A DNA stretch of 63,118 nt, the filler included, from Phoronis australis (Eukaryota; Animalia; Phoronida): assembly GCA_002633005.1 (NCBI GenBank). It is 10 parts of 10 records of this genome, joined end to end, with 100 filler letters (N's around TTAATTAATTAA, not from the genome) between each part and the next. Parts side by side here need not be neighbours in the genome. Positions count along the whole stretch, not along the records: positions 17,380 to 29,094 come from NMRA01000162.1; 9 more parts are not named here. One strand, 5' to 3'. How positions within the stretch are numbered: the stretch's first letter is position 1; each line of letters opens with the position of its first letter. The notes under the pieces were generated by a model that did not search any database, had not been told where the DNA came from, and was given only the letters and a program-made list of their open reading frames with translations. Shown here piece by piece: positions 5,040-50,877 of this stretch. Made by a program: the position numbers and the translations under genes.

Positions 5040-6437
5040 CAGTGGCGGATCTANTCATGACAGTGACGGATCTAGGATATCACAAGGGGGGGCCCAACAT
5101 TTTGTCCGGCTGTAAGCATTTGCGCCAACCACGATTGTTGATGCGTATAGCACCGAATGGGGGGAGGTCGGGAGGGGAAAATTTTTCTGTTTTTTCCTCT
5201 AAAAATCAAACATTTTCCTTGATTCCTAAAGTATTATCGAAGAACAATAAAGCATAAAAAATTAAGAACGTGTCAAACAGGAAAAAATGCACATTCCACA
5301 GACTCGAACTCACGACCTAGCGAATAGAGCACGCGTGCTTTACCACTACACTACCACGACTTACCTACTAATCCTTTATTAAGAGACCTACTTGTTTGCG
5401 GTCCACAGCGTTTGCGTGCGAAACCTACTTCATTTTGTAATGCTTATTACATGTTTTATATTTTGTGCAATCGGTTCTGAACAAATTTGTTGTATTTAAA
5501 GTAGTCTTCAAATGCCCAAAAGACCAAATCCGTTTTTCGTGTTGGCAATAATGACGGGNAATGGGGGGAGGTCGGGAGGGGAAAATTTTTCTGTTTTTTC
5601 CTCTAAAAATCAAACATTTTCCTTGATTCCTAAAGTATTATCGAAGAAAAAAAAGCATGAAAAAATTAAGAACGTGTCAAACAGGAAAAAATGCACATTC
5701 CACAGACTCGAACTCACGACCTAGCGAATAGAGCACGCGTGCTTTACCACTACACTACCACGACTTACCTACTAATCTTATATTAAGAGACCTACTTGTT
5801 TGCGGTCCACAGCGTTTGCGTGCGAAACCTACTTCATTTTGTAGTGCTTATTACATGTTTTATATTTTGTGCAATCGGTTCTGAGCAAATTTGTTGTATT
5901 TAAAGTAGTCTTCAAATGCCCAAAAGACCAAATCCGTTTTTCGTGTTGGCAATAATGACGGGATTGCTTTGGAAATCGTCTTAAGTTAAGGTTTGACAAA
6001 GAGAGAATTATGAGTTTCCGAGTGTTTCACTAAGGCTTCGATTAAAATTCACATCTTACCAACAGCTTCTGTTTTTTCGTCGTCACTCAGATTCCATTTT
6101 CTTTAAAAAATGACGTAAATTTTCTTCATAGCACAGTGGAGCAGACGACGGAAACGGGGTCGTAGTGCGCAGCGCCACTGCCGGTCGCCTGGAATATCGC
6201 GGGAGAGCCTATACTTAGCCACGAATGCGCCCTGTTCCGAATTTGATACTTGAAATTGGATCTGAGCCCCCCCCAACAACACTAAAACTGCACACATTTA
6301 ATTCTTTTTTCATCCGTGTAACTTTTAATTACTTGGGTTAATTAATAAACTCAACATTTCCCTACGCACTTGCTGTTTTATTTTTTTTGCGGCAGCCAAG
6401 GGGGGAGAGGCCCGGGCCCCCCCTAAATCCGCCTATG
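5040..6437. mobile_element. Non-autonomous DNA element (MITE-like) with CAGTGGCGGATCTAGG-type termini and G/C-run subtermini
   Basis: Left end CAGT(G/G)(G/A)CGGATCTAGGATATCACAAGGGGGGGCCC at 5040/5061. Right end GGGCCCCCCCTAAATCCGCCTATG at ~6414-6437 is an imperfect inverted match. The same left end recurs at 33227. No clear TSD. Confidence 0.45.
5157..5962. repeat. ~400-420 bp near-identical tandem duplication joined at a single N (5559); contains a minus-strand tRNA-like segment
   Basis: 5157-5558 matches 5560-5962. The minus strand of 5298-5357 and 5702-5761 reads GTGGTAGTGTAGTGGTAAAGCACG...GAGTTCGAGTCTG (A-box and B-box like). Confidence 0.85.
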
Positions 6438-15434: not shown

Positions 15435-15626
15435 GGGGTGTATGGAGGATCCAGGGAGGGGTAGTACCTTTGGTGGGGGGCTTGTCGTACTCCTTAGGGG
15501 GTGGCTCGTCCACCTTTGGTCCCCACCTGTCCTCAGCTCTCCCCTGTGGCTCCCAGTAGCTGTGGCATGCGCAGCGGACACACCCCGGGACACCGCTTCA
15601 ACAGGCGGGCTAAACCAGATTGAGGG
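15435..15626 (+). ncRNA. Candidate variant HDV-like ribozyme at the RTE 5' end (expanded L3)
   Basis: P1 GGGGTGT 15435-41 / ACACCCC 15580-86; GG 15587-88; P4 CCGCTT 15593-98 / AGGCGG 15603-08; J4/2 GCTAA 15609-13; P3 GGC 15548-50 / GAC 15577-79 (one mismatch); L3 starts TCC; P2 15537-47 / 15614-26 is imperfect. Confidence 0.5.
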
Positions 15627-16200
15627 TAGCCGACGGGTCTCAAACCCTCGGTGTGTTAGGGACTGCCTAGCCTAGCATGTGAAGACTGGCTCCGACAGAC
15701 TGAGCGGATGAGACCCCCAGTGGTCCAACGGTCAAGACGGCGATTTCAGCAAGCGCCGTGGAGCGCTCAGAGCACGACGAGGCACCAAAGAAGTCATGGT
15801 CATCCACTTCAGCAGGGGTAACCTCCAGCCTTAACAGTTTTCTGTGCCACTGGATCAAGGTTTCCTCAGCCGAGAGAGTGGGATTGCCCCAGTGCAACGG
15901 CTTTACCACTTTAAAAACCATCACGCACAGGTTTGTTGTGTGATTCATCATTTCCGATCAGCACCTTTCAAGTCCTGCGGCGAAACTGCGCGTAGGCGGC
16001 CTTCGGACCAGTGGTCGCTCTTTCTCTGAACCCAGGGCATCAGAGAAGTCCGTTAGCATCCAGGGCTACTTTAGAACAGCACTGCCCACCCTCGCACGAA
16101 CGAGGGGGTTAGAAAAGGTACCCCAAACATTGCTTGCCCCATCAAGTCTGGCCAGCTTGCCGCGGTTGGCAGATCATCCACATGCGGTCGATCAACAAAG

Positions 16201-17279
16201 AACAAAAGAAAACTAATCTTCGGAGCATGGAACGCCCGAACACTGATGGATAGAGACACTGCAGCCAGACCAGAAAGAAGGACTGCACTTGTAGCTAGAG
16301 AACTCCAGCGCTACCGCGTAGACAATGCAGCTCTCAGCGAGACGAGATTCGCTGATGAAGGGTCACTGAAAGAGGAGAAGGGAGGCTACAGATTCTTCTG
16401 GAAAGGGAAACCAGAGGCTGAAGACAAGAATTTATGGAGTAGGATTTGCTATCAGGTCCACCATGTTGAAGAACATCCCTACTCTTCCCACTGGTGTCAA
16501 TGGGCGCCTAATGAAGCTTCGCTTCCCACTGAACAAATCTCGCCACATCACCATCATCAGCGCCTACGCCACAACGCTCACTAGTCCCGAAGAAGTCAAG
16601 GAACGCTTCTACGAAGACTTTGACCAGATCATCAGGACAACTCCCCCGAACGACAAGCTTGTAATCTTCGGAGACTTCAACGCCCGAGTCGGAAATGACA
16701 GCAGTTGGGAAGGTGTGTTGGGACGGCACGGAGTAGGTAAACTCAACAGCAACGGCCTGCTCCTACTAAGTAAATGCGCTGAGCACAACCTGTGTATCAC
16801 CAACCCTATGTTCAGACTAGCAGCCAAGTATAAGACCACCTGGATGCATCCCAGGTCCAAACATTGGCACATGATAGACTTTGTCTTCGTTCGCCAGCGG
16901 GATATGCAGGATGTCAAGATTACCCGGGTAATGAGGGGCGCTGAATGCTGGACAGATCACAGCTAGTGCGATCTCTTTTCAACGTGCACATCGTTCCCCC
17001 GCAGCGCCACAGGCAGAAAATCATCAGGGCATCATTCAACACAGCCAGGTTAAAGCATCCTCTACACCTTCATCGGTTTCAGTATTCTCTGGACGACACG
17101 CTATCAGGCAATACACCACTTGTTGGAACCAGCACTGAGAAATGGGCGCAGTTCAAGGAGGCCGTGACAGAAACCGCAGAGACGGTACTGGGACCGAATC
17201 CCCGGGTGCACCAAGACTGGTTTGATGAAAACGATGAAGCCATTTCTACAACCCTTGATGCCAAGAAGAAAGCCTATGT
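16201..17279 (+). pseudogene. Frameshifted RTE ORF: AP-endonuclease domain and start of linker
   Basis: Motifs GAWNARTL, AALSETR, IISAYA, GDFNARVG, TTWMHPRSKHWHMIDF, CWTDH and QDWFDEND are split over three ORF segments, with frameshifts near 16430 and 16962. Confidence 0.93.
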
Positions 17280-20839: not shown

Positions 20840-23800
20840 CCCTTACAAAAATGAACTTAAGTTTTCAGCAAAAAACTGAAGTTTTTGGTCTGAAAAACTT
20901 ATGTTTTCATTCGCGAAAACTTAAGTTTTTGGCGAAAACTTAAGTATTTTGGAAGAACTTTTTTGGAACAAACTTAAGTTTTCATAACTTAAGTTTTCAA
21001 AAACTTAAAATCTAAAAACTTAAGTATTTCAAAAACTTAAAATTTCTGAAGTTTTAAAAAATTATGTTCGTTCCAAAAAACTTCTTCCAAAATACTTAAG
21101 TTTTTGGAAAACATGAGTTTCAGAAACTTAAGTTTTTGAAAAACTTAAGTTTTAGAACAAGTTTTAGTAAGAAACATAAGTCATAAAGTTTTCCGAACAT
21201 AAGCTTTCAAGGAACTAACTTTTGAAAACTGAAGTTTTTTAAAAGCAATAAGTCTCAATAGGACGGGCATTCAAAAATTTCGATTTTCACTAAAACAAGA
21301 GTGGAGTACAGGAACAAATTTGATGATTCTCAACAAGATTTAACAAACCAGAGTTCTATTAACATTTCATTAACAGTGATCAATTGGAGCAAAGAAAATG
21401 TACTTTCTAAAATACACTAGATCCTTAAAATAAGTGAACATAAGTGAAATATCAAAATCTTAAAAACCAGAAAGATTTCAAAAATCAGTTCATCAAGTGT
21501 CATGCATACAATGTAGTCAAAACTAAATGGGGCTAATAATATATTCATATTTTCATCGTTCTCAGTCTATGACAATTATGCGATAACTGAGGGAGCAAAC
21601 TACATAGCCAGGAAGGACTACAACAAAAGTCTACGTTTCAACAGCACAGACTTTTTCAACTAAAATTACAGCAATGACACCAAGAATAACAAATCACTTA
21701 ATATGCCAAATCCAAGAATATCCACAGAGACAAAAGCATAACATAAAACGTAACAGGTAAGTAAAAGTTTATCGACAATTGCCACAGATCTGATTTTGAG
21801 AAGTACAATCCTTATGATAGAAATAATACCAAGAATCACCTATCATTGTTTTCAACCTGAACAATATCAATTTAAAAGTCAAAGTTTCGTTTTGTTGACA
21901 ATCATAATAACAGTAAATCCAACACACTCCATGGTGCGAACAAGTTTCACTAAAAGTAACCCTTAGTACAACCTGGCTATACGAGATGGAAATTAGAAAA
22001 CTTAGACCGTTGACCACAAAAATATTATATCTCCTTTAATTTAAAGCTACTGAACTTCATACACATACATGTATCTATAGAGCCTTTCATACTAACATCG
22101 ACGTGTTGTTGGGAGTTAATGTCAGTATGAACGCCTTAACTTTGGTCTTGGAAGGAAGTTAACAGAGTCAGTTAACTTCGCACTAAACAGGTGGATTTAA
22201 GTACTTAGGGTCAACGCTGCCACGCAGTGTAAACGATCAACTCCTGTCCTATCGAAGTTATTGCTAGAGGCCACTGTTATCATTAACAATTGCATAGTAG
22301 TGTGATGGCTAATAGTTACTTATACCTTGCTCTAATAATCACCAATCAATTTAAAAATAAGTTTTATGTCAATTAACACATGTAAATGTTTCCAAATTGT
22401 CACATCTTAGCGTGCAGTGCTACCTTGCGATACCTTCGATCACGAAAGTGTCAACTACTGTTTACTTCGAAGATCATTAACTACCGAAGCCAGAATGAAC
22501 AGTCCAGTTAACTTCGCAGTATACATCTACGTCGATGCTACGCTCAGACAAGAGTTACAGCACACATCACGAATTTTTGTCCGACCGGTCGGAAATTGGT
22601 CGACGACCGACCGTCGACCGGTTCGTCTAGCGGACCAGCAGCCGACCAACAACGGTCGGCTGGGAGCCGTCTGCTGAGTCGCCTCTGTGGTCGGCACTTG
22701 GGTCGGCTAAGTGGTCGGCTAGCGTAGATGACCAATTCGGATTAAGCATGTCCTTGGTCAGCAATTACCATTTTATGACTTAGCGGGTGAACTTTGGACA
22801 AACAAACATTTAACTGTTCGCTGTTCGTTTACCAGTGGCAACTCCGGTCTTGACATCGGTTTATCAACTTGTGTTCAACTATTGAATGGAGCTAAAATCG
22901 AATCAACCTACAAATACGAAGTGCGTGACATTACACTAGCCTAAAACTTTATGTAGAATTAATGACGAAGTGGTAAAATCAAACGTTAAGTGATATCGCG
23001 GAAGCATAATTTCTAACTTTAGATATGAGACTTTTTATACAGTACAGTGTGCATAAAGGAATCACGAAATTTGAAATTTACAGTAACATTGCATAAAAAT
23101 CAGAATACAACACTGGATATTTTACGACCTCAAGTGTTTTCATGCCGCGGAATGCTTAACAAGCAGCACTTATTCGCGCTCATCTGTTATTGCTCTTGAT
23201 CATCACTTCACCGCGCTGTATATTGCGCTTTACCGCATATAATTATTGCTTATTTCTGTATAATTTCTTAATATGTTGGTACAGCAATAGAACCCAAGTT
23301 TACTTTAGGAACAACATAAGCAATGGTTTGAACATAGCGCCGATATTAAATCATGGGCGCATGAAAGCGGAAGACTGTGATCATCATTCTGAAATTGTTG
23401 TCACTTTCGCAGAAAAAATCTTTTCGAAACTACAGCCTTCCTATCTATACAGCCAGTTGCATGAAGACTATTTTCAAAATACAGCAAGGTCCCACTGCTT
23501 ATTTAGATCAAACAGACCTCGAAACTTCACACAGCCCGGATAGTTACGCTTGTCACCTCGCCGAAAAGCTTGTATCAACATTAGTTCAAGACCGGCGTGT
23601 GTGCGTACAAAATCTAGAAGTCAATTGGCATTCAAGTTGGCCGTTACGGCCGTTTAAACGAAAAACATCCGACGTCATCTTCTCATGTAATTCTCTGCCT
23701 TTTTTAATGAAAAAACGTATGTCGTCGTTTTGAAAATAGTTCATTGTGAGACACGCGACACTTCGAAAATGTTTTCAACATCTCCCATTATGTAGAGTTG

Positions 23801-26251
23801 TGCATTTTGTTATCAGATTAACGAATTAAACAATGAAAAGTTCATCAAAAAATTGGAATTGTAGTTTATTGCATTTGCCAACAGTTTCATCATTTGATAA
23901 AGAATATTAATTAATTTGTCATAGAACTTGAACGAAAAAGTTACAGAATACGATACCTTGTTAGCCTGAAGTCCAACTTTTAATAACACAATAAGTTTTG
24001 TCATATGCACGGTTTGTTCTAGATTGTAATAGCATAATAGGTGACCATGTGCATGTTTTGTATTCAAGTTGCATAGAATAAAATTGTTTTGAATGTCGCG
24101 AATCCAGGATTAAAACTTCATTCAAAACAGTATGTGGAAAGCTGATCCACTGCGGTGCATGCTTGAAGTAAACTTGCAAACCAGTCTTGCACTTGAATCC
24201 TGGAGAGTAATTGGTTAAATTTTGAGTTTGAACACTATTGTCTAGGCTCTGTATATAAGTCAGGAAGATTTAAAAATCAGTGTTGTATAAACAGCACGAT
24301 AAATATCCAGCCAGTTAAGTTGTCTTATACTGGTAGCTTTTACCTGTCTGTTATTAAAATTTGTTGTCTTCATTGCAGAGTGTGCCTTCAACAATCGTTG
24401 GATAAGGAAGGCTACCTAGACAACACGACGTGCGCACTTACGAACTGCAGTTCATGAACCTATGGGTTCAGTTATCTGAGCTCAGAAACGCGCGTTTGTA
24501 GTCACAAAACATGGATTATTACCAAGTGAAGCTAAACGAGCAGATCTAGCTAAACAAGATTAAGTGGCTTGTGATCTACCCTAGGGCCCTTTCACATTGA
24601 CTTAACTCTTGTCTGGGCGGAGCATCGGCGTATACTGCGAAGTTAACTGGACCGTTCATTCCGGCTTCGGCAGTTAAAGAACTTCGAAGTAAACAGTAGG
24701 TAACGCTGTCGTGATCGAAGTTATCGCAAGGTAGCACTGCAAGCTAAGCTGTGACAACTTGGGAACATTTACATGTGTTAATTGACATAAAACTTATTTT
24801 TAAATTGATTGGTGATTATTAGAGCAAGGGATAAGCAACTATTAGCCATCACACTACTATGCGATTGTGAATGATAACAGTGGCCCCTGGCAATAACATC
24901 GATAGTACCGAAGTTGATAGTTTATACTGCGTGGCAACGTTGACGCTAAGCAATTTAATCCACCTGTTTAGTGCGAAGATAACTGGCGCTGTTAACTTTC
25001 TTCCATGACCGAAGTTTAAGCATTGATACTGACATTAACTCCCAAAATCTTCGACATGTGTATGAAGTTCAGCAGCTTTAAATTAAAGGATAACAAATAT
25101 TTTTGTGGTCAAAGGTCTAAGTTTTCTAATTTCCATCTGGTATAACCAGGTTGTACTGAGGGTTACTTTTAGTGAAACTTGTTCGCACCATGGAGTGTGT
25201 TGGATTTATTGTTTTTATGATTGTCAACAAAACGAAACTTTGACTTTTAAATTGATATTTTTAAGGTTGAAAACAAGTATAGGTGATTCTAAGCACTATT
25301 TCTAGCATAAGTAATGTACTTCCCAAAATCAGACCTGTGGCCATTGTCGATGAACTTTTAGTTACCTGTTACGTTTTATGAAATGCTTTTGTCTCTGCGG
25401 ATATTCTAGGATTTTGCATATTAAGTGATTTGTTGTTCTTGGTGTCATTGCTGTAATTTTAGTTGAAAAGGTCTGCTGTTGAAATGTAGACTATGTAATC
25501 ACATTTTCTTTGGTTGTGTTTCATGATTTGGTAGTGATTTCTCTGTTTGTACATTCCTGGCTCCCTTAGTTAGCGCATAATTGTCATAGAGTGAGAACGA
25601 TGCAAATATGAATATATTATTAGCCTCATTTAGTTTTCACTGCATTGTATGCATGACACTTGATGAACTGATATTTGAAATGTTTCTGGTTTTTGAGATT
25701 TTGATATTTCACTTATGTTCACTTATTTTACGGAACTAGTGTATCTTAGGAAGTGCATTTTATTTTCTGCAATTAATCACTGTTAATGAAATGTTAAAAG
25801 AACTCTAGTTTGTTAAATCTTGATGAAAATCATTAAATTTGTTACTGTACTCAGCTCTTGTTTTAGTGAAAGTCGAAATTTTTGAATGCATGTCCGTTTG
25901 AAACTTATTGCTTTTAGAAAAATTTAGTTGTCAAAAGTTAGTTCCTTGAAAAGTGATGTTCGGAAAACTTAGTTTTCAAAAACTTAAAGCTTTGATGACT
26001 TATGTTTGTTGCTAAAAACTTGTTCCAAAACTTATGTTTTCCAAAAACTAATAAGTATTTTGGAACAAGTTTTTTTGGAACGAACTTAAGTTTTTGAAAA
26101 CTTAAGTTTTCAGAATTTAAGTTTTTGAAAAACTTAAGTTTTCAGAACTTAAATTATGAAAACTTAAGTTCGTTCCAAAATACTTAATTTTTCACCAAAA
26201 ACTTAAGTTTTCGTGAACTTCGATGAAAACTTAAGTTCATTTTTGCAATGG
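20840..26251. mobile_element. ~5.4-kb foldback-like element with ~1.7-kb inverted arms (20840-22557 / 24602-26251) and ~2-kb spacer
   Basis: Termini CCCTTACAAAAATGAACTTAAG / CTTAAGTTCATTTTTGCAATGG. Outer ~300-400 bp are ACTTAAGT subrepeats. The inner arms are reverse complements, e.g. the mirror ORFs 21769-22017(-) and 25105-25305(+), and CCAGTTAACTTCGCAGTATA ~22504 vs TATACTGCGAAGTTAACTGG 24631. Confidence 0.9.
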
Positions 26252-27549: not shown

Positions 27550-27753
27550 AAAATGACTTAAGTTCGTTTTTTGTTAAGTCTAAGATTTGTCCTAAGTTAC
27601 AAATTTTGAAACTTCCACATTTAGAAAATTATTCAAAATTAAGACAAAATGAAGGTCATACTTAAGATCTCATGGTTTTGAGACAAATCTAACTTTTATT
27701 TTAAAATTTAAGATTTGTCTTTGCAAAGTTATATTTGTTGAAACGGGCCCCAG
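27550..27753. mobile_element. MITE remnant ending TTGTTGAAACGGGCCCCAG
   Basis: Repeated TAAGATTTGTC/GACAAAT motifs and a GGGCCCCAG terminus; a similar end (AACCGGGCCCAG) occurs at ~43622-43633. Confidence 0.4.
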
Positions 27754-28138
27754 ATATGTAAGTCCTAAAGAGCTGTGGCCTAACCACAGAAGGAGTATCA
27801 CGTACCTGTAATGCACGAGTTATATACACTCATTCACTGTAGTGCTTTTCATTGGGCGTTGAACAACGAACAGTAGGTGTGAAATTGAAAGTCGTAGAAA
27901 AATATGTTGGGATTTGTGGATTTTTATGGTACCCACAGCATATGTGGGAGTGGCGTGGAATTTCCCAATTGATTCAACATGGGAAGCATACTGTAGGATT
28001 GCCGGGTGTACTGCACAAGGGGAAGTGAGAAATGAACGCCTATGCTAGGCATTTTAGTTACATCATTTTTGGCCATAGTAAGATAAAAGAACGGGCAGTC
28101 GCCGCACAAAAATGTATGTTCATTCAACGTTTCGTATA

Positions 28139-28353
28139 GTGTGTTGGTGGTTTCGACCACAGGTTGTGGTGCTTAGCGTCTAGTGTGGTAGTGTAGTTAG
28201 TAGTAGTATCTAGCTCTGCTTAGTGCTCTGCTTTCAGCTTCCGCCGCTGTTCAGTTCCGACTGTCAGTACATAGCTTCTCCCACAACAAGACTCGTGCAG
28301 TGCCTCCACGCGGCAACACATGGACTGGGTTTACTCAGGCTAAACTGTGCGGG
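28139..28353 (+). ncRNA. HDV-like self-cleaving ribozyme (nested double pseudoknot), long J1/2
   Basis: P1 GTGTGTT 28139-45 / AACACAT 28315-21 (G-U wobble at the cleavage site); P2 CTCGTGCAGT 28292-301 / ACTGTGCGGG 28344-53; P3 GCC 28302-04 / GGC 28312-14; L3 TCCACGC; P1.1 CC 28306-07 / GG 28322-23; P4 CTGGG-TTTA-CTCAG 28325-38; J4/2 GCTAA with catalytic C at 28340. Confidence 0.88.
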
Positions 28354-29094
28354 ATCGGGTTGGGGAAGGGGGTTTTCTGTCTTTAGCAGCCGCTGTTGTT
28401 TCGAACGATATGAGATGCCGAAAACCTTGTTGGAAGCATTCTCTGTTCTCGGGTGATTGATCAGTGGCTCTAGAGTGGGAGACCTCTCTAACCCAATCAT
28501 CCCCCTTTGGGGCGCCTCTTCGGGTCCGATTGATACCCCTTGTCTCCGGTGACACGGGAACCCTTGAGAACTAATACCCTGGTTCTTGAGTCTTAAGCCA
28601 GTTGCGGCTGGTGGTAAACAACACAGAACTTTGCGTATGAAGTAATCTTGGGCAAACCGCGGTGCACGGAGTAGCGCCTGTTGCACTAGGGGACAAGCCT
28701 CTGTACGGTTAGCCCTGGGAGGTTGCGAGGTTCTGGCACTTGGAGGTAGACATACTGAACCTGGGTAGTCCATTTGCAGCAGAAGCCCTTTCGCTGGGGG
28801 TCATATGCTCGCTTGGAGGAACCAGGGGAGGGAGCTGTTAAAACCAGTGTCAGATCCTATAGGTTTGCGGATGCAGGAAAGCCTTTGGCTGGGCCTTGTT
28901 GCCACCCTATGGATAAGGTGAATGCGGATGCAGACCTGAATCATAACCTATACTTGCTATATGGATCCACAGCGAAAACCAATAACCCACCCTGGTCAGG
29001 GTTCAAGTGACCAGCGCACAGGGCAGTCGAATGTGGTCTTTGCGGCCACGGACGTCCACCTCAAAGACTCCTCCCTAGGAGTTTCTATAAGGCA
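28139..29094 (+). mobile_element. Probable 5' UTR of a non-LTR retrotransposon headed by the HDV-like ribozyme; body lost in gap
   Basis: About 950 bp of GC-rich sequence contrasting with AT-rich flanks. It starts at the predicted cleavage site and runs into a contig break; no recognisable ORF is visible. Confidence 0.55.
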
Positions 29095-30065
29095 NNNNNN
29101 NNNNNNNNNNNNNNNNNNNNNNNNNNNNNNNNNNNNNNTTAATTAATTAANNNNNNNNNNNNNNNNNNNNNNNNNNNNNNNNNNNNNNNNNNNNATGAAA
29201 CTGTGTGAAAATGTCATCATGTGAATTCTAATACAAACAGTGGCTTGTCTACATAGCCATAGTTTACAACGTTTGCGATAACCAACATTTTTAATCAACA
29301 CAGGTGCTTTAAATAGGGACCAGCAATTTTAACAGCACACGAATTCTGTCACAGGACCATTGCATAATAGAGACTGACTATAAACATGTCCCCTCATTTA
29401 GTGAGTGTTCCAGATGACAGAAACTTTCTAATGGTGACATCAATCTGGACTATGTTTGATAGACAGCAAGACAATATCTTCCACGTGAAAATCTTTTCCA
29501 AAAGAACGGAAACACTGATTTAATCCCACAATTCAACAAACCAACATCGCCGACCAATCACATTTGTGACTGCCTTTTTGGTACGATTGGCATGAGCTCC
29601 AGCGACTCGCGAAACAATCGCTTTTCACTCGAATGGACTATATAAGCTAAGCATTCTTTTGCATAGCATCACGCATGGTAGTACACAGGCCTATTGATCT
29701 AACACATTCGAAAAATCTATAATTGATGCCATTGCTAAAGCAGCACGTGCTCTGTGGAATGGGCCATGTTTAGAATGATACACCGATTTTAAACAAAAGG
29801 TATTGCTAAAATTGCCGTTTTCATTTTTCAAGACTTCTTAAAGTGTTGTGAATAAGCCAGGATTTTAAAAAATATTAATGATACAGTAGAGAAGTTGAAA
29901 ATGATGGCAACAAATTACAGGTAAACACAATCGTCCAAGGCTGCCTTTACCGTGCAACTCAGAGATGTGGCAGTAAATTGCGGCAAAAATTGTTGAAGGC
30001 AAGTTCTGTGAAGGAATGAACATTAGCCAAGTATTAAACTATATGAGAGTTAAGAAAGTACTTAC

Positions 30066-30240
30066 TGATCCCCAGTTGAGGGTCCTGGCCAGGTCGTTAC
30101 CAGTACCCAATGGCAAGATGGCCACAGGTGGGGGAGGCTTGATGCCGACCAAGTCAATCGTGGACAAGATCCAGCCCACAGTGCCATCACCTCCGCAGGC
30201 CAAGATACGCAGGTTTGGAACCTTTTTATAGAGCTCCAGA
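30066..30240 (-). CDS. DGKZ: Internal exon of a type IV diacylglycerol kinase (DGKzeta/iota, rdgA-like), catalytic DAGKc domain
   Basis: Encodes [58 protein letters not shown] with GGDGT and [11 protein letters not shown] motifs. Polypyrimidine acceptor TTTTGTTTTGTTTAG (AG at 30242-41) and donor GTAAGT (30065-60). Length 175 nt = 1 + 58 codons. DGKZ versus DGKI orthology cannot be resolved. Confidence 0.96.
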
Positions 30241-31073: not shown

Positions 31074-33226
31074 TCAGATGCCAGCTGAGCTGACAGCGAG
31101 ACACAAAGACAAGAAGTAATTAAGGGCTATTTTTGGCCCAAAAAAAAAACACCCCAAGGATGGGGACACTGGGTACAACTGCTAAAGTGCAAGTGTGCGG
31201 AAATCACTTGCAGGGAATATGACAGTCGACTGCTTTCAAACGTCAAAAAATTAATAAGGATCACAGCAGGAATAATGGATTGATATACTAGCAGTACACG
31301 ACACACTCGTTATATCTAACTAATTAGTCAAACGAGGGAGAACACATGAATTAGCTGTCCAAATGAGATTATTCTCTTGTAGCTTGTATTGATTGACGTG
31401 TTATGCATTGCAATCATCTTGAAAGAGGTACCGGGAAAAACAAGCTACAAATTGACAAATGCATTTTTAATAAATTCAGACTAAGCTCCTTCTAAGGATG
31501 GAAACTATTAATAATAAAGAGACAGGATGAATATTTGAATTGATAACTATCATTAGGTGCTAATAATTTCCCTAACAGAAAAGTCATTAAACAGTAATGC
31601 AGAGCTTGTGAGGCAGATTTATCATCGTGATGAAACTATACACATTTCGTGACCGACGTAAGGCTACAACCAAAAATGAAGATTCGGATATTGACTCTGA
31701 CATTGCAGTTACAGATTTAGACTAAGGAACTATGAGCGCGTGCGATTTTTATTAGTTATTTAAGTGATCTAGCACAAGGGAGACCATCTCTAAGAAGGGC
31801 AAAGGTCAACATGCAGGAAGTTTGTTGACTAAGAGTTTGCTCTAGTGTATTGTGGGTAGTAAGCTACTACTGACACATATTGTACCACGAAAGATGGTGA
31901 AGAGCAAGGAGCATCATGGGTAGTGAGATACTATTGACTTGTGCTGCATCACGAAGGACTGTGACCTCCGAGTACAGTGGGAGAAAATAGTAGTTGGTAC
32001 AAGGATTGACCAACAGGATGGTCAAGCGAGACACCGAATGTTGTACTGAATGAGCAACTGGCTCCAGAAGTGGCCTACAGGATCGTCATTCACAGAGCGT
32101 CGATNTCAGATGCCAGCTGAGCTGACAGCGAGACACAAAGACAAGAAGTAATTAAGGGCTATTTTTGGCCCAAAAAAAAAAACACCCCAAGGATGGGGAC
32201 ACTGGGTACAACTGCTAAAGTGCAAGTGTGCGGAAATCACTTGCAGGGAATATGACAGTCGACTGCTTTCAAACGTCAAAAAATTAATAAGGATCACAGC
32301 GGGAATAATGGATTGATATACTAGCAGTACACGACACACTCGTTATATCTAACTAATTAGTCAAACGAGGAAGAACACGTGAATTAGCTGTCCAAATGAG
32401 ATTATTCTCTTGTAGCTTGTATCGATTGACGTGTTATGCATTGCAATCATCTTGAAAGAGCTACCGGGAAAAACAAGCTACAAATTGACAAATGCATTTT
32501 TAATAAATTCAGACTAAGCTCCTTCTAAGGATGGAGACTATTAATAATAAAGAGACAGGATGAATATTTGAATTGATAACTATCATTAGGTGCTAATAAT
32601 TTCCCTAACAGAAAAGTCATTTAACAGTAATGCAGAGCTTGTGAGGCAGATTTATCATCGTGATGAAACTATACACATTTCGTGACCGACGTAAGGCTAC
32701 AACCAAAAATGAAGATTCGGATATTGACTCTGACATTGCAGTTACAGATGTCCTTCAAACAGAGATGAGTAGCGTCGACAATAAGCGTGTAATGAAGCTG
32801 GGTTCGACAAATCAAAAGGCACTGTATCAGTAAAAACTAAGTTGCTTCTGTTCAATGAATGGTGACTTAAGACTTATGAAAGAAAGCTCCCATTGCTCAA
32901 CTGCTGAATAAAGATTTAGACTAAGGAATTACGAGCGCGTGCGATTTTTATTAGTTATTTAAGTGATCTAGTACAAGGGAGACCATCTCTAAGAAGGGCA
33001 AAGGTCAACATGCAGGAAGTTTGTTGACTAAGAGTTTGCTCCAGTGTATTGTAGGTAGTAAGCTACTACCGACACATATTGTACCACGAAAGATGGTGAA
33101 GAGCAAGGAGCATCATGGGTAGTGAGATACTATTGACTTGTGCTGCATCACGAAGGACTGTGACCTTCGAGTACAGTGGGAGAAAATAGTAGTTGGTACA
33201 AGGATTGACCAACAGGATGGTCAAGC
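31074..33226. repeat. ~950-1120 bp tandem duplication (31074-32027 vs 32106-33226) joined at a single N; probably two haplotypes
   Basis: Near-identical copies with scattered SNPs; copy 2 has an extra 166 bp (32750-32915). Confidence 0.9.
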
Positions 33227-49895: not shown

Positions 49896-50047
49896 ATGGC
49901 TAATCAGCATAGTTGTGTTCCGCGTTGCTCGAACGGCGACAGAAAAAATACAAACATTCAACTGTCTTTTTTACAATCCCTAAAGACGTTGAGATTCGGA
50001 AGCGTTGGGTTGTTGCCATACGCCGCGACAAGGGAAAATTTTTCCGG
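49896..50047 (+). pseudogene. Frameshifted THAP zinc-finger N-terminus (transposon derived)
   Basis: MANQHSCVPRCSNGDRKNTNIQLSF (frameshift in T run) FTIPKDVEIRKRWVVAIRRDKGKFFR, then a possible GTAAAA donor. It shows the THAP C..C, P and W pattern. Confidence 0.7.
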
Positions 50048-50877
50048 GTAAAATCGATAACTTTTTTCGAAAGTTTGATCACATTTTGTCGCATCTCGGT
50101 TGCCGAGCATCATGGCAACCGTGAACGACCACGGAATCTTCGGCCAGAGAGGCTGTGTTTTCATGACTACTGGTTGGAACATGATGCATTTCTTTCCAAA
50201 AAGGACAGGGCCCTCAATCCCTCGATTTTGGGACCGAATATCGGCACTATTCCCCCTCTCAACAGTAGTGAAAAATCACGCGAAATTCCCCCACGAGGCC
50301 TAAAAATTTCCCCAAAATGATTGCAAATTTCGCCTCGAAGTTCAAATCACCTGTAACCACACAGGTGACAATTTGAAAGAGCACAAAATTCTACTTGAGA
50401 GAGAGCCTATGGGAGCTTGCAATTAACAGGGCGGGGGTGCCACTGACGGTGATCGAGAGGTAGAATTTTCTCCTCAATCGGCGAAAAATTTCCTCTCTCA
50501 GAAGGCACAGGTACCTTCCCTTCCAATCAACGAGGCCCCTGAAGAACATGATTATAACTATGTTTACTCTGCTCAGTTAACTGAAATTGAGTGCTAAAAC
50601 GAGATGGGTTATTTATTCAGGTTATGCTTTGGACGAACGAACTAGGTGTCTTAATTTTAAAACTCAACTTGGTCCAGATTGATATTTGAAACCTAACGTA
50701 TGAAATAGATGTAAGAATTTTTAAAGCCAAGAAAGCAGATTTGCTGGTCAAATAATTTTTTTTTTCAATTACCAGCCTGGTTTTTTATTTTAATAAAAAT
50801 ATATTTAATAATTTAAATCATTTCTGTAGATCAATCACAAATCAACCGTTAGTCCCGGACCAGGACCTACACTATGC

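Follow-up and report, generated by a model that had tools for sequence, protein, structure and literature searches.

An HDV-like, predicted self-cutting ribozyme fold at the 5' end of a young, multi-copy family of probable retroelements in Phoronis australis

What is a complete HDV-like ribozyme fold doing near a diacylglycerol kinase (DGK) exon of Phoronis australis, and does its predicted cleavage site coincide with the end of a mobile element? The window, i.e. the whole stretch of DNA that was analysed (63,118 nucleotides), consists of ten contigs; at each join a 12-base all-frame-stop linker lies between two N44 runs, and order and distances across the joins are uncertain. Judged from this sequence and from its copies in public data, the 215 nt from position 28139 probably (at roughly 0.85) serve as the self-cutting 5' head of a retroelement, either a non-LTR retrotransposon or a non-autonomous derivative of one. 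That a young retroelement family begins precisely with an HDV-like motif is a known arrangement, and the family itself is new; literature searches returned no published account of the element, which does not by itself establish its absence from print.

Checking by coordinate revealed a complete double-pseudoknot layout of the HDV type, with all parts in order, on the plus strand. The initial annotation had described the same elements, namely a 7-bp P1 opening with a G-U wobble (28139/28321), a 10-bp P2 with three G-U pairs, a 3-bp P3, L3 UCCACGC, a CC/GG P1.1, a 5-bp P4, J4/2 GCUAA with the catalytic C at 28340, and a 146-nt J1/2 that opens with a GUGGU-UUCG-ACCAC hairpin, and each of these was found where it had been placed. 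The parts are as follows.

28139..28353, plus strand: HDV-like ribozyme fold, whole, with cleavage predicted between A28138 and G28139 (fold check, descriptor and 5' ends of copies)
28139..28145, plus strand: P1 5' strand; G28139 is G1 and forms a wobble pair with U28321
28147..28160, plus strand: J1/2 arm 1, a 5-bp hairpin with a UUCG loop (pair probabilities 0.83-0.97)
28163..28287, plus strand: J1/2 arm 2, a domain closed by the 7-bp stem 28163-69/28281-87 (probability 0.99); its interior length differs between copies
28292..28301, plus strand: P2 5' strand, 10 bp with three G-U, pairing with 28344-28353
28302..28314, plus strand: P3 (3 bp) and L3 UCCACGC, which holds the CC of P1.1 at 28306-28307; the same core occurs in 17 viral contigs
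28315..28323, plus strand: P1 3' strand (28315-21) and the GG of P1.1 (28322-23), by coordinate check
28325..28338, plus strand: P4 hairpin, 5 bp (28325-29/28334-38), by coordinate check
28339..28343, plus strand: J4/2 GCUAA; C28340, the counterpart of C75, is predicted to act as general acid, and 28339 is A in other copies
28344..28353, plus strand: P2 3' strand, pairing with 28292-28301

The L3 loop of HDV-like ribozymes contains a conserved U, a conserved C and a conserved CG, all of which are present in UCCACGC (28305-11), itself enclosed by the P3 pairs 28302-04/28312-14, while the 2-bp P1.1 is formed by C28306-C28307 with G28322-G28323. This loop also agrees with the alignment to drz-agam-1 and with the viral loci considered below. 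P1 (28139-28145/28315-28321) begins at the cleavage-site G with the G28139-U28321 pair, its remaining pairs are Watson-Crick, and its 7 bp lie within the 6-7 bp reported for HDV-like ribozymes (PMC3774820). J4/2 provides both the catalytic C and the conserved A, and C28340 is invariant among the differences listed between copies.

If the fold is functional, copies of the element should share its first base; this was assessed in reads and contigs of public runs carrying the same species label, of which X1 and X2 derive from one sample and may overlap. The mapping of 27790-28420 was performed at 92% likeness, and the findings draw on 12 of 25 loose ends and 16 of 50 pieces. The segment concerned is:

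28139..29094, plus strand: visible 5' part of a multi-copy element, running on to the contig end (X1 depth; shared boundary)

Over 27700-29094, summed X1 depth was approximately 480-2,300 throughout the segment that begins with the ribozyme and ends with the contig, versus 50.8 in the unique flank, and at 92% likeness it rose from that 50.8 to 996 at 28142-28163, with the step located at 28139-28142. At least three X1 contigs and at least two X2 contigs start exactly at G28139 with different upstream flanks, and among the loose ends listed the agreement before 28139 was 0.64 in X1 and 0.65 in X2, about the value of unrelated flanks. At least two of these contigs represent different subvariants (X1 record 2 and X2 record 10), and one X5 contig begins at 28142 rather than at 28139, after 21 foreign bases. 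The shared 5' boundary called for in the initial annotation was thus located, the element being dispersed and multi-copy with copies that start at the cleavage site after unrelated sequence, and the predicted cut site is therefore the 5' end of the family. The coincidence of the predicted G1 with the observed family boundary argues more strongly than any other observation for a functional fold in the family.

The earlier proposal that this end belongs to a young element is likewise upheld, since collapsed core contigs (depth 491-746) differ from the window by only 0-1 bases. Depth is not equivalent to copy number, but points to at least ten near-identical copies, and older relatives are present at 85-90% likeness. 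In long X1 and X2 contigs a 65-nt match is confined to the core (28304-28368, five differences), which suggests that the ribozyme core may outlast its surroundings. Among 40 of 190 differences listed, the core variants are G28339A, G28349A and C28317U, all of which keep the fold: G28349A turns a U-G into a U-A pair and C28317U a G-C into a G-U pair if the partner is unchanged, and no two-sided compensatory change was seen within the same set. The G at 28339 looks private to the window copy, other copies reading ACUAA, given that A was present at this position in all data covering it (eight X1 contigs, one X5 contig, 6/6 X7 reads and 16/16 X8 reads).

Run X6 (organism B) gave no match on 27790-28420 at 92% likeness, which may be a false blank, and no second copy of the element occurs within the 63-kb window. 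DNA patterns specific to the family found no match in metagenome, genome or viral contigs, two metagenome pattern matches, both in bacterial genes, being attributed to chance. In the RNA reads of X7, X8 and X9 there was no pile of read starts at 28139, an uninformative result given a depth there of 1-3 reads. Most RNA reads over the element body are less than 90% alike and first-mate-plus (173/227 in X7 and 110/141 in X8), i.e. antisense by the usual convention, the strandedness being uncalibrated, while the four X9 reads at 92% or above are all first-mate-minus (sense by the same uncalibrated convention).

A series of events may be proposed on this basis. A donor copy would be transcribed by read-through from a flanking promoter and its RNA would fold, the two-armed J1/2 and the 10-bp P2 holding P1 and P2 together as in drz-Agam-2-1 of the mosquito Anopheles. 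In the cleavage step, which would fall 5' of G28139, Mg2+ would activate the 2'-OH and C28340 would donate a proton to the 5'-oxygen leaving group; for the HDV ribozyme, PMC13635239 describes C75 acting as general acid and a divalent ion acting as Lewis acid. Once freed, the RNA would be copied to its last base by target-primed reverse transcription, so that full-length insertions would start at G1. Cleavage of this kind at the precise 5' junction, which removes upstream sequence and leaves full-length insertions beginning at G1, is described in PMC3774820 and reported there for R4, Dong, L1Tc, baggins, RTE and Drosophila R2.

What kind of element the ribozyme heads is less certain. Two features at the edge of the contig bear on the part downstream.

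28961..29094, plus strand: frame of 44 codons that begins with ATG and is still open where the gap starts, a possible ORF start of the element (frame scan, putative)
29095..29194, no strand: scaffold gap (N44, 12-base linker, N44) hiding the 3' part of the element (sequence inspection)

Because the element runs into this gap, no reverse transcriptase (RT), endonuclease, 3' tail or target-site duplication is visible; neither RT nor endonuclease was found in the visible 956 nt, and when 25 nt of left flank were compared with the 906 nt beyond the gap, no match exceeded 8 nt, the longest lying away from the junction. An RTE-type LINE is a reasonable guess by analogy, because RTE and baggins elements carry HDV-like ribozymes and depend on host read-through transcription (PMC6765202). 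R2 was rejected as the clade on account of the absence of any rRNA match in the window and the varied flanks of the copies.

The main alternative as to element type, a sub-case of the preferred explanation that differs from it only downstream of the ribozyme, is that the ribozyme heads not a full LINE but a short non-autonomous element of approximately 1-2 kb (SIDE- or SINE-like) which borrows the RT of another element. In its favour, none of the frames tested at the 3' end of the 956 visible nt yielded a protein relative, searches with the 44-51-residue frame, including those of Atlas and viral contigs, having produced nothing credible, and ribozyme-headed SIDEs are described for R2 in PMC3774820. 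Against it, depth remains high right up to the contig end, the ATG frame is open into the gap and in other copies takes up an in-frame 3-nt insertion after 29018, and an older copy in an 8,488-nt X1 contig is followed by approximately 4 kb downstream, which leaves room for an ORF. We regard a non-autonomous element as possible but as the less probable form of a ribozyme-headed retroelement.

Several candidates were discarded: a 27-residue Pseudomonas match to the frame was judged to be chance, three further matches to it are to tandem-repeat proteins inflated by repeated stretches, and a 178-codon minus-strand ORF over the ribozyme, devoid of a Pfam match, was dismissed as a shadow frame. Elsewhere in the window, a separate frameshifted LINE fragment (15435-17279, plus strand), which looks RTE-like, encodes an APE endonuclease (PF14529, E 8.5e-7); it lies behind an (ATGT)n array, is truncated by a gap, and contains no match to the HDV descriptor and no DNA similarity to the element at 28139.

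Does the fold still cut? Folded alone, the 146-nt J1/2 gives the UUCG hairpin and the domain closed by the 7-bp stem (0.99), and owing to these two arms P1 and P2 would be joined by few unpaired bases. The interior of this domain is variable: another copy (one X1 contig, nine X7 and six X8 reads) contains a 47-nt duplication of 28170-28216, and one related contig, read by eye, has a 28-nt loose end before 28289 and appears to close the same 28163-69/28281-87 stem over approximately 12 nt.

It is conceivable that the fold is intact on paper, and that the family or the window copy no longer cuts, being blocked by misfolding with the GU-rich J1/2 or with the flank, and that the 5' end was inherited from an older, active ancestor. 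P1 is indeed weak (-5.8 kcal/mol, compared to -12.5 kcal/mol for P2), a near-match to its 5' strand at 28183-89 competes at -4.8, and a local hairpin over P1 reaches -7.2 versus the -5.8 of P1 itself. The flank together with G1-U2 is furthermore able to pair with the P2 3' strand (-8.0 versus -12.5 kcal/mol for P2), which in the window copy could, according to these calculated energies, slow folding. Judging by depth bins only, one X9 read also seems to begin near 28138 and to continue unlike the window; it may be uncut read-through of another copy. P1 and P2 together (-18.3) nevertheless outweigh the flank alternative (-10.8), five P1 pairs form unprompted at 0.72 with a short flank, and young near-identical copies as well as diverged subvariants all start at G1, which renders a loss of cutting improbable. 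The segment 28177-28193, within which the near-match lies, is itself a degenerate internal repeat of the junction, identical to 28133-28149 at 14 of 17 bases.

At the insertion site, the element interrupts a separate repeat:

28048..28138, minus strand: what is left of another short repeat, which holds the GAAAC half of a likely minimal hammerhead of Penelope type and is broken by the element (repeat edges 28053-28067; minus-strand reading)

An 813-nt X1 contig is identical to the left flank over 27700-28047 (348 nt), deviates by 14 base differences and six gap positions over 28048-28133, and then runs on without the element. On its minus strand, beyond 28133, this contig carries a CUGAUGA half that pairs in layout with GAAAC (28129-33), and the two, judged by eye, look like a degenerate form of the minimal hammerheads known from Penelope-like elements (PMC4209133). 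A 181-nt X2 contig is exact to the window over 27931-28111, and the site is probably polymorphic because both versions occur in one sample. The element-free contig does not provide a clean empty site, as the 86 nt preceding the element belong to another copy of the short repeat; this difference could stem from a tandem Penelope insertion, from gene conversion or from donor flank transferred along with the element. None of the contigs listed bridges the window's own junction between flank and element, the continuation of the element-free contig is absent from the window at up to three mismatches, and no complete hammerhead core was found in the window. A CRISPR-DR64 match at 28101-28137 (E 5.9), overlapping the GAAAC motif, was rejected. 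Further upstream, 27700-27753 forms the edge of a different high-copy repeat, one well represented among RNA reads (X7 depth approximately 87, first bin).

From the variable J1/2 and this nested site a bolder proposal can be assembled, to which we would assign little likelihood: that the family may represent an undescribed class of ribozyme-headed retroposon lacking a recognisable protein of its own, in which J1/2 is modular (approximately 12 to approximately 160 nt between active subfamilies) and the cut site fixed, and that the window copy, nested in an opposite-strand Penelope-type hammerhead, carried approximately 90 nt of donor flank along with it by homology-guided 5' attachment outside rDNA.

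That the fold might be a chance assembly of helices in GU-rich repeat sequence is very improbable. A generic HDV descriptor (L3 consensus, 3-bp P3, 7-bp G-started P1, GG, P4 of at least 3 bp, C in J4/2 and P2 of at least 6 bp), composed after the site was already known, matched once on the two strands of the 63-kb window, while 0 of 300 dinucleotide shuffles held any match. A perfect P1 partner alone would be expected by chance in approximately 4% of shuffles, and 28139 is the only one within 300 nt. Chance would moreover have to account for the coincidence of the predicted G1 with the independently observed family boundary. In its favour, the nested fold energy is no better than that of shuffles (z 0.76), as expected because the fold is a pseudoknot, and the Rfam scan of the window gave no match at gathering threshold over the ribozyme, drz-agam-1 aligning to 28281-28352 with 15.1 bits (E 6.7) against a gathering score of 37. 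Of the descriptor and covariance searches suggested in the initial annotation, the former therefore singled out the site while the latter remained below threshold.

The silence of Rfam carries little weight, since it likewise missed the phage HDV-like motifs in 5/5 loci tested. The same P3-L3-GGA-CUAA core is present in 17 viral contigs, 14 of which (several being near-duplicates) have, 8-10 nt upstream of P3, a perfect partner for a 7-bp P1 that starts with G, and such a core thus marks HDV-like folds. These phage-contig motifs (L001-L017) are mostly theta-like with short linkers; that of L014 abuts a tRNA, and none of the five scanned reaches the Rfam ribozyme threshold.

The position of the site relative to a host gene remains to be considered.

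30066..30240, minus strand: exon of a diacylglycerol kinase zeta/iota-like gene (catalytic domain), a neighbour outside the element (best matches 90%)

The distance of about 1.7 kb given in the initial annotation holds as a nominal value only, since it crosses the 100-base placeholder gap 29095-29194, whereas the opposed orientation is confirmed, the exon lying on the minus and the ribozyme on the plus strand. No other DGK exon was found in the 63-kb window by motif or by tblastn with nine homologues; an intronic location in the DGK gene is plausible from this one exon across a gap. As the element points against the direction of DGK, its pre-mRNA would carry only the inactive reverse complement of the ribozyme, and a DGK transcript running through the site would not be cut. 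Retention by the host as a regulator of DGK, on the model proposed for the intronic CPEB3 ribozyme, is hardly credible despite the nominal 1.7 kb, given the wrong strand, a young and multi-copy element, an X1 contig that shares the left flank and lacks the element, and the gap in the link to the exon. At this locus the window copy is most probably a passenger.

The CPEB3 ribozyme is single-copy and lies sense to its pre-mRNA. The two have in common an HDV fold near a host-gene exon, the CPEB3 ribozyme being described as conserved across mammals (PMC13635239), whereas that at 28139 is multi-copy, young and antisense to the neighbouring exon. Its closest counterparts are the ribozymes at the 5' ends of non-LTR elements (RTE, baggins, R4/Dong, L1Tc and Drosophila R2), with which it shares the double pseudoknot and the predicted cut at the first base; as in the ribozyme-headed families described in PMC6765202 and PMC3774820, sequence downstream is conserved and sequence upstream variable among copies. 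Unlike R2, the element lies outside 28S rDNA and is known here without a visible RT or endonuclease. Within Rfam its best ribozyme alignment over the core is to drz-Agam-1, but at only the sub-threshold score given above, and a large structured J1/2 with a long P2 is shared with drz-Agam-2-1, in which these features are stated to speed cleavage nearly 1,000-fold (PMC4908430). It differs from the latter in its two-armed J1/2 (a UUCG hairpin and a length-variable domain) and in a P2 of 10 rather than 12 bp. The theta ribozymes of phages (Kienbeck et al. 2024, PMC10879173) have the identical P3-L3-GGA-CUAA core, yet they possess a short J1/2 and follow tRNAs; assignment to that group was rejected, as J1/2 here is 146 nt and the window contains no tRNA. 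HDV-like ribozymes have been reported from sea urchin, lancelet, lamprey, nematodes and insects (PMC8256844).

The locus accordingly offers a well-bounded natural case of HDV-like ribozymes defining retrotransposon 5' ends, in an animal family missed by Rfam and with genomic copies that match the predicted cut site to the base, while its natural J1/2 length variants form a ready series on the tuning of cleavage rate by a peripheral domain. Knowledge of the ribozyme class as such is unchanged by the element, and there is no sign of a role in DGK regulation.

Other features were noted in the window. Two inverted 1.7-kb repeats, 20896-22557 and 24603-26237, are 82% alike, contain ACTTAAGTTTT-type sub-repeats and are likely a foldback DNA transposon. 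A weak THAP-domain match (E 0.002, below cutoff) occurs at 49913-50317 on the plus strand. The tandem duplications at 31074-32749 (643 nt, 98.8%) and 5156-5962 (403 nt, 98.3%), each split by a single N, are likely assembly artefacts of heterozygosity.
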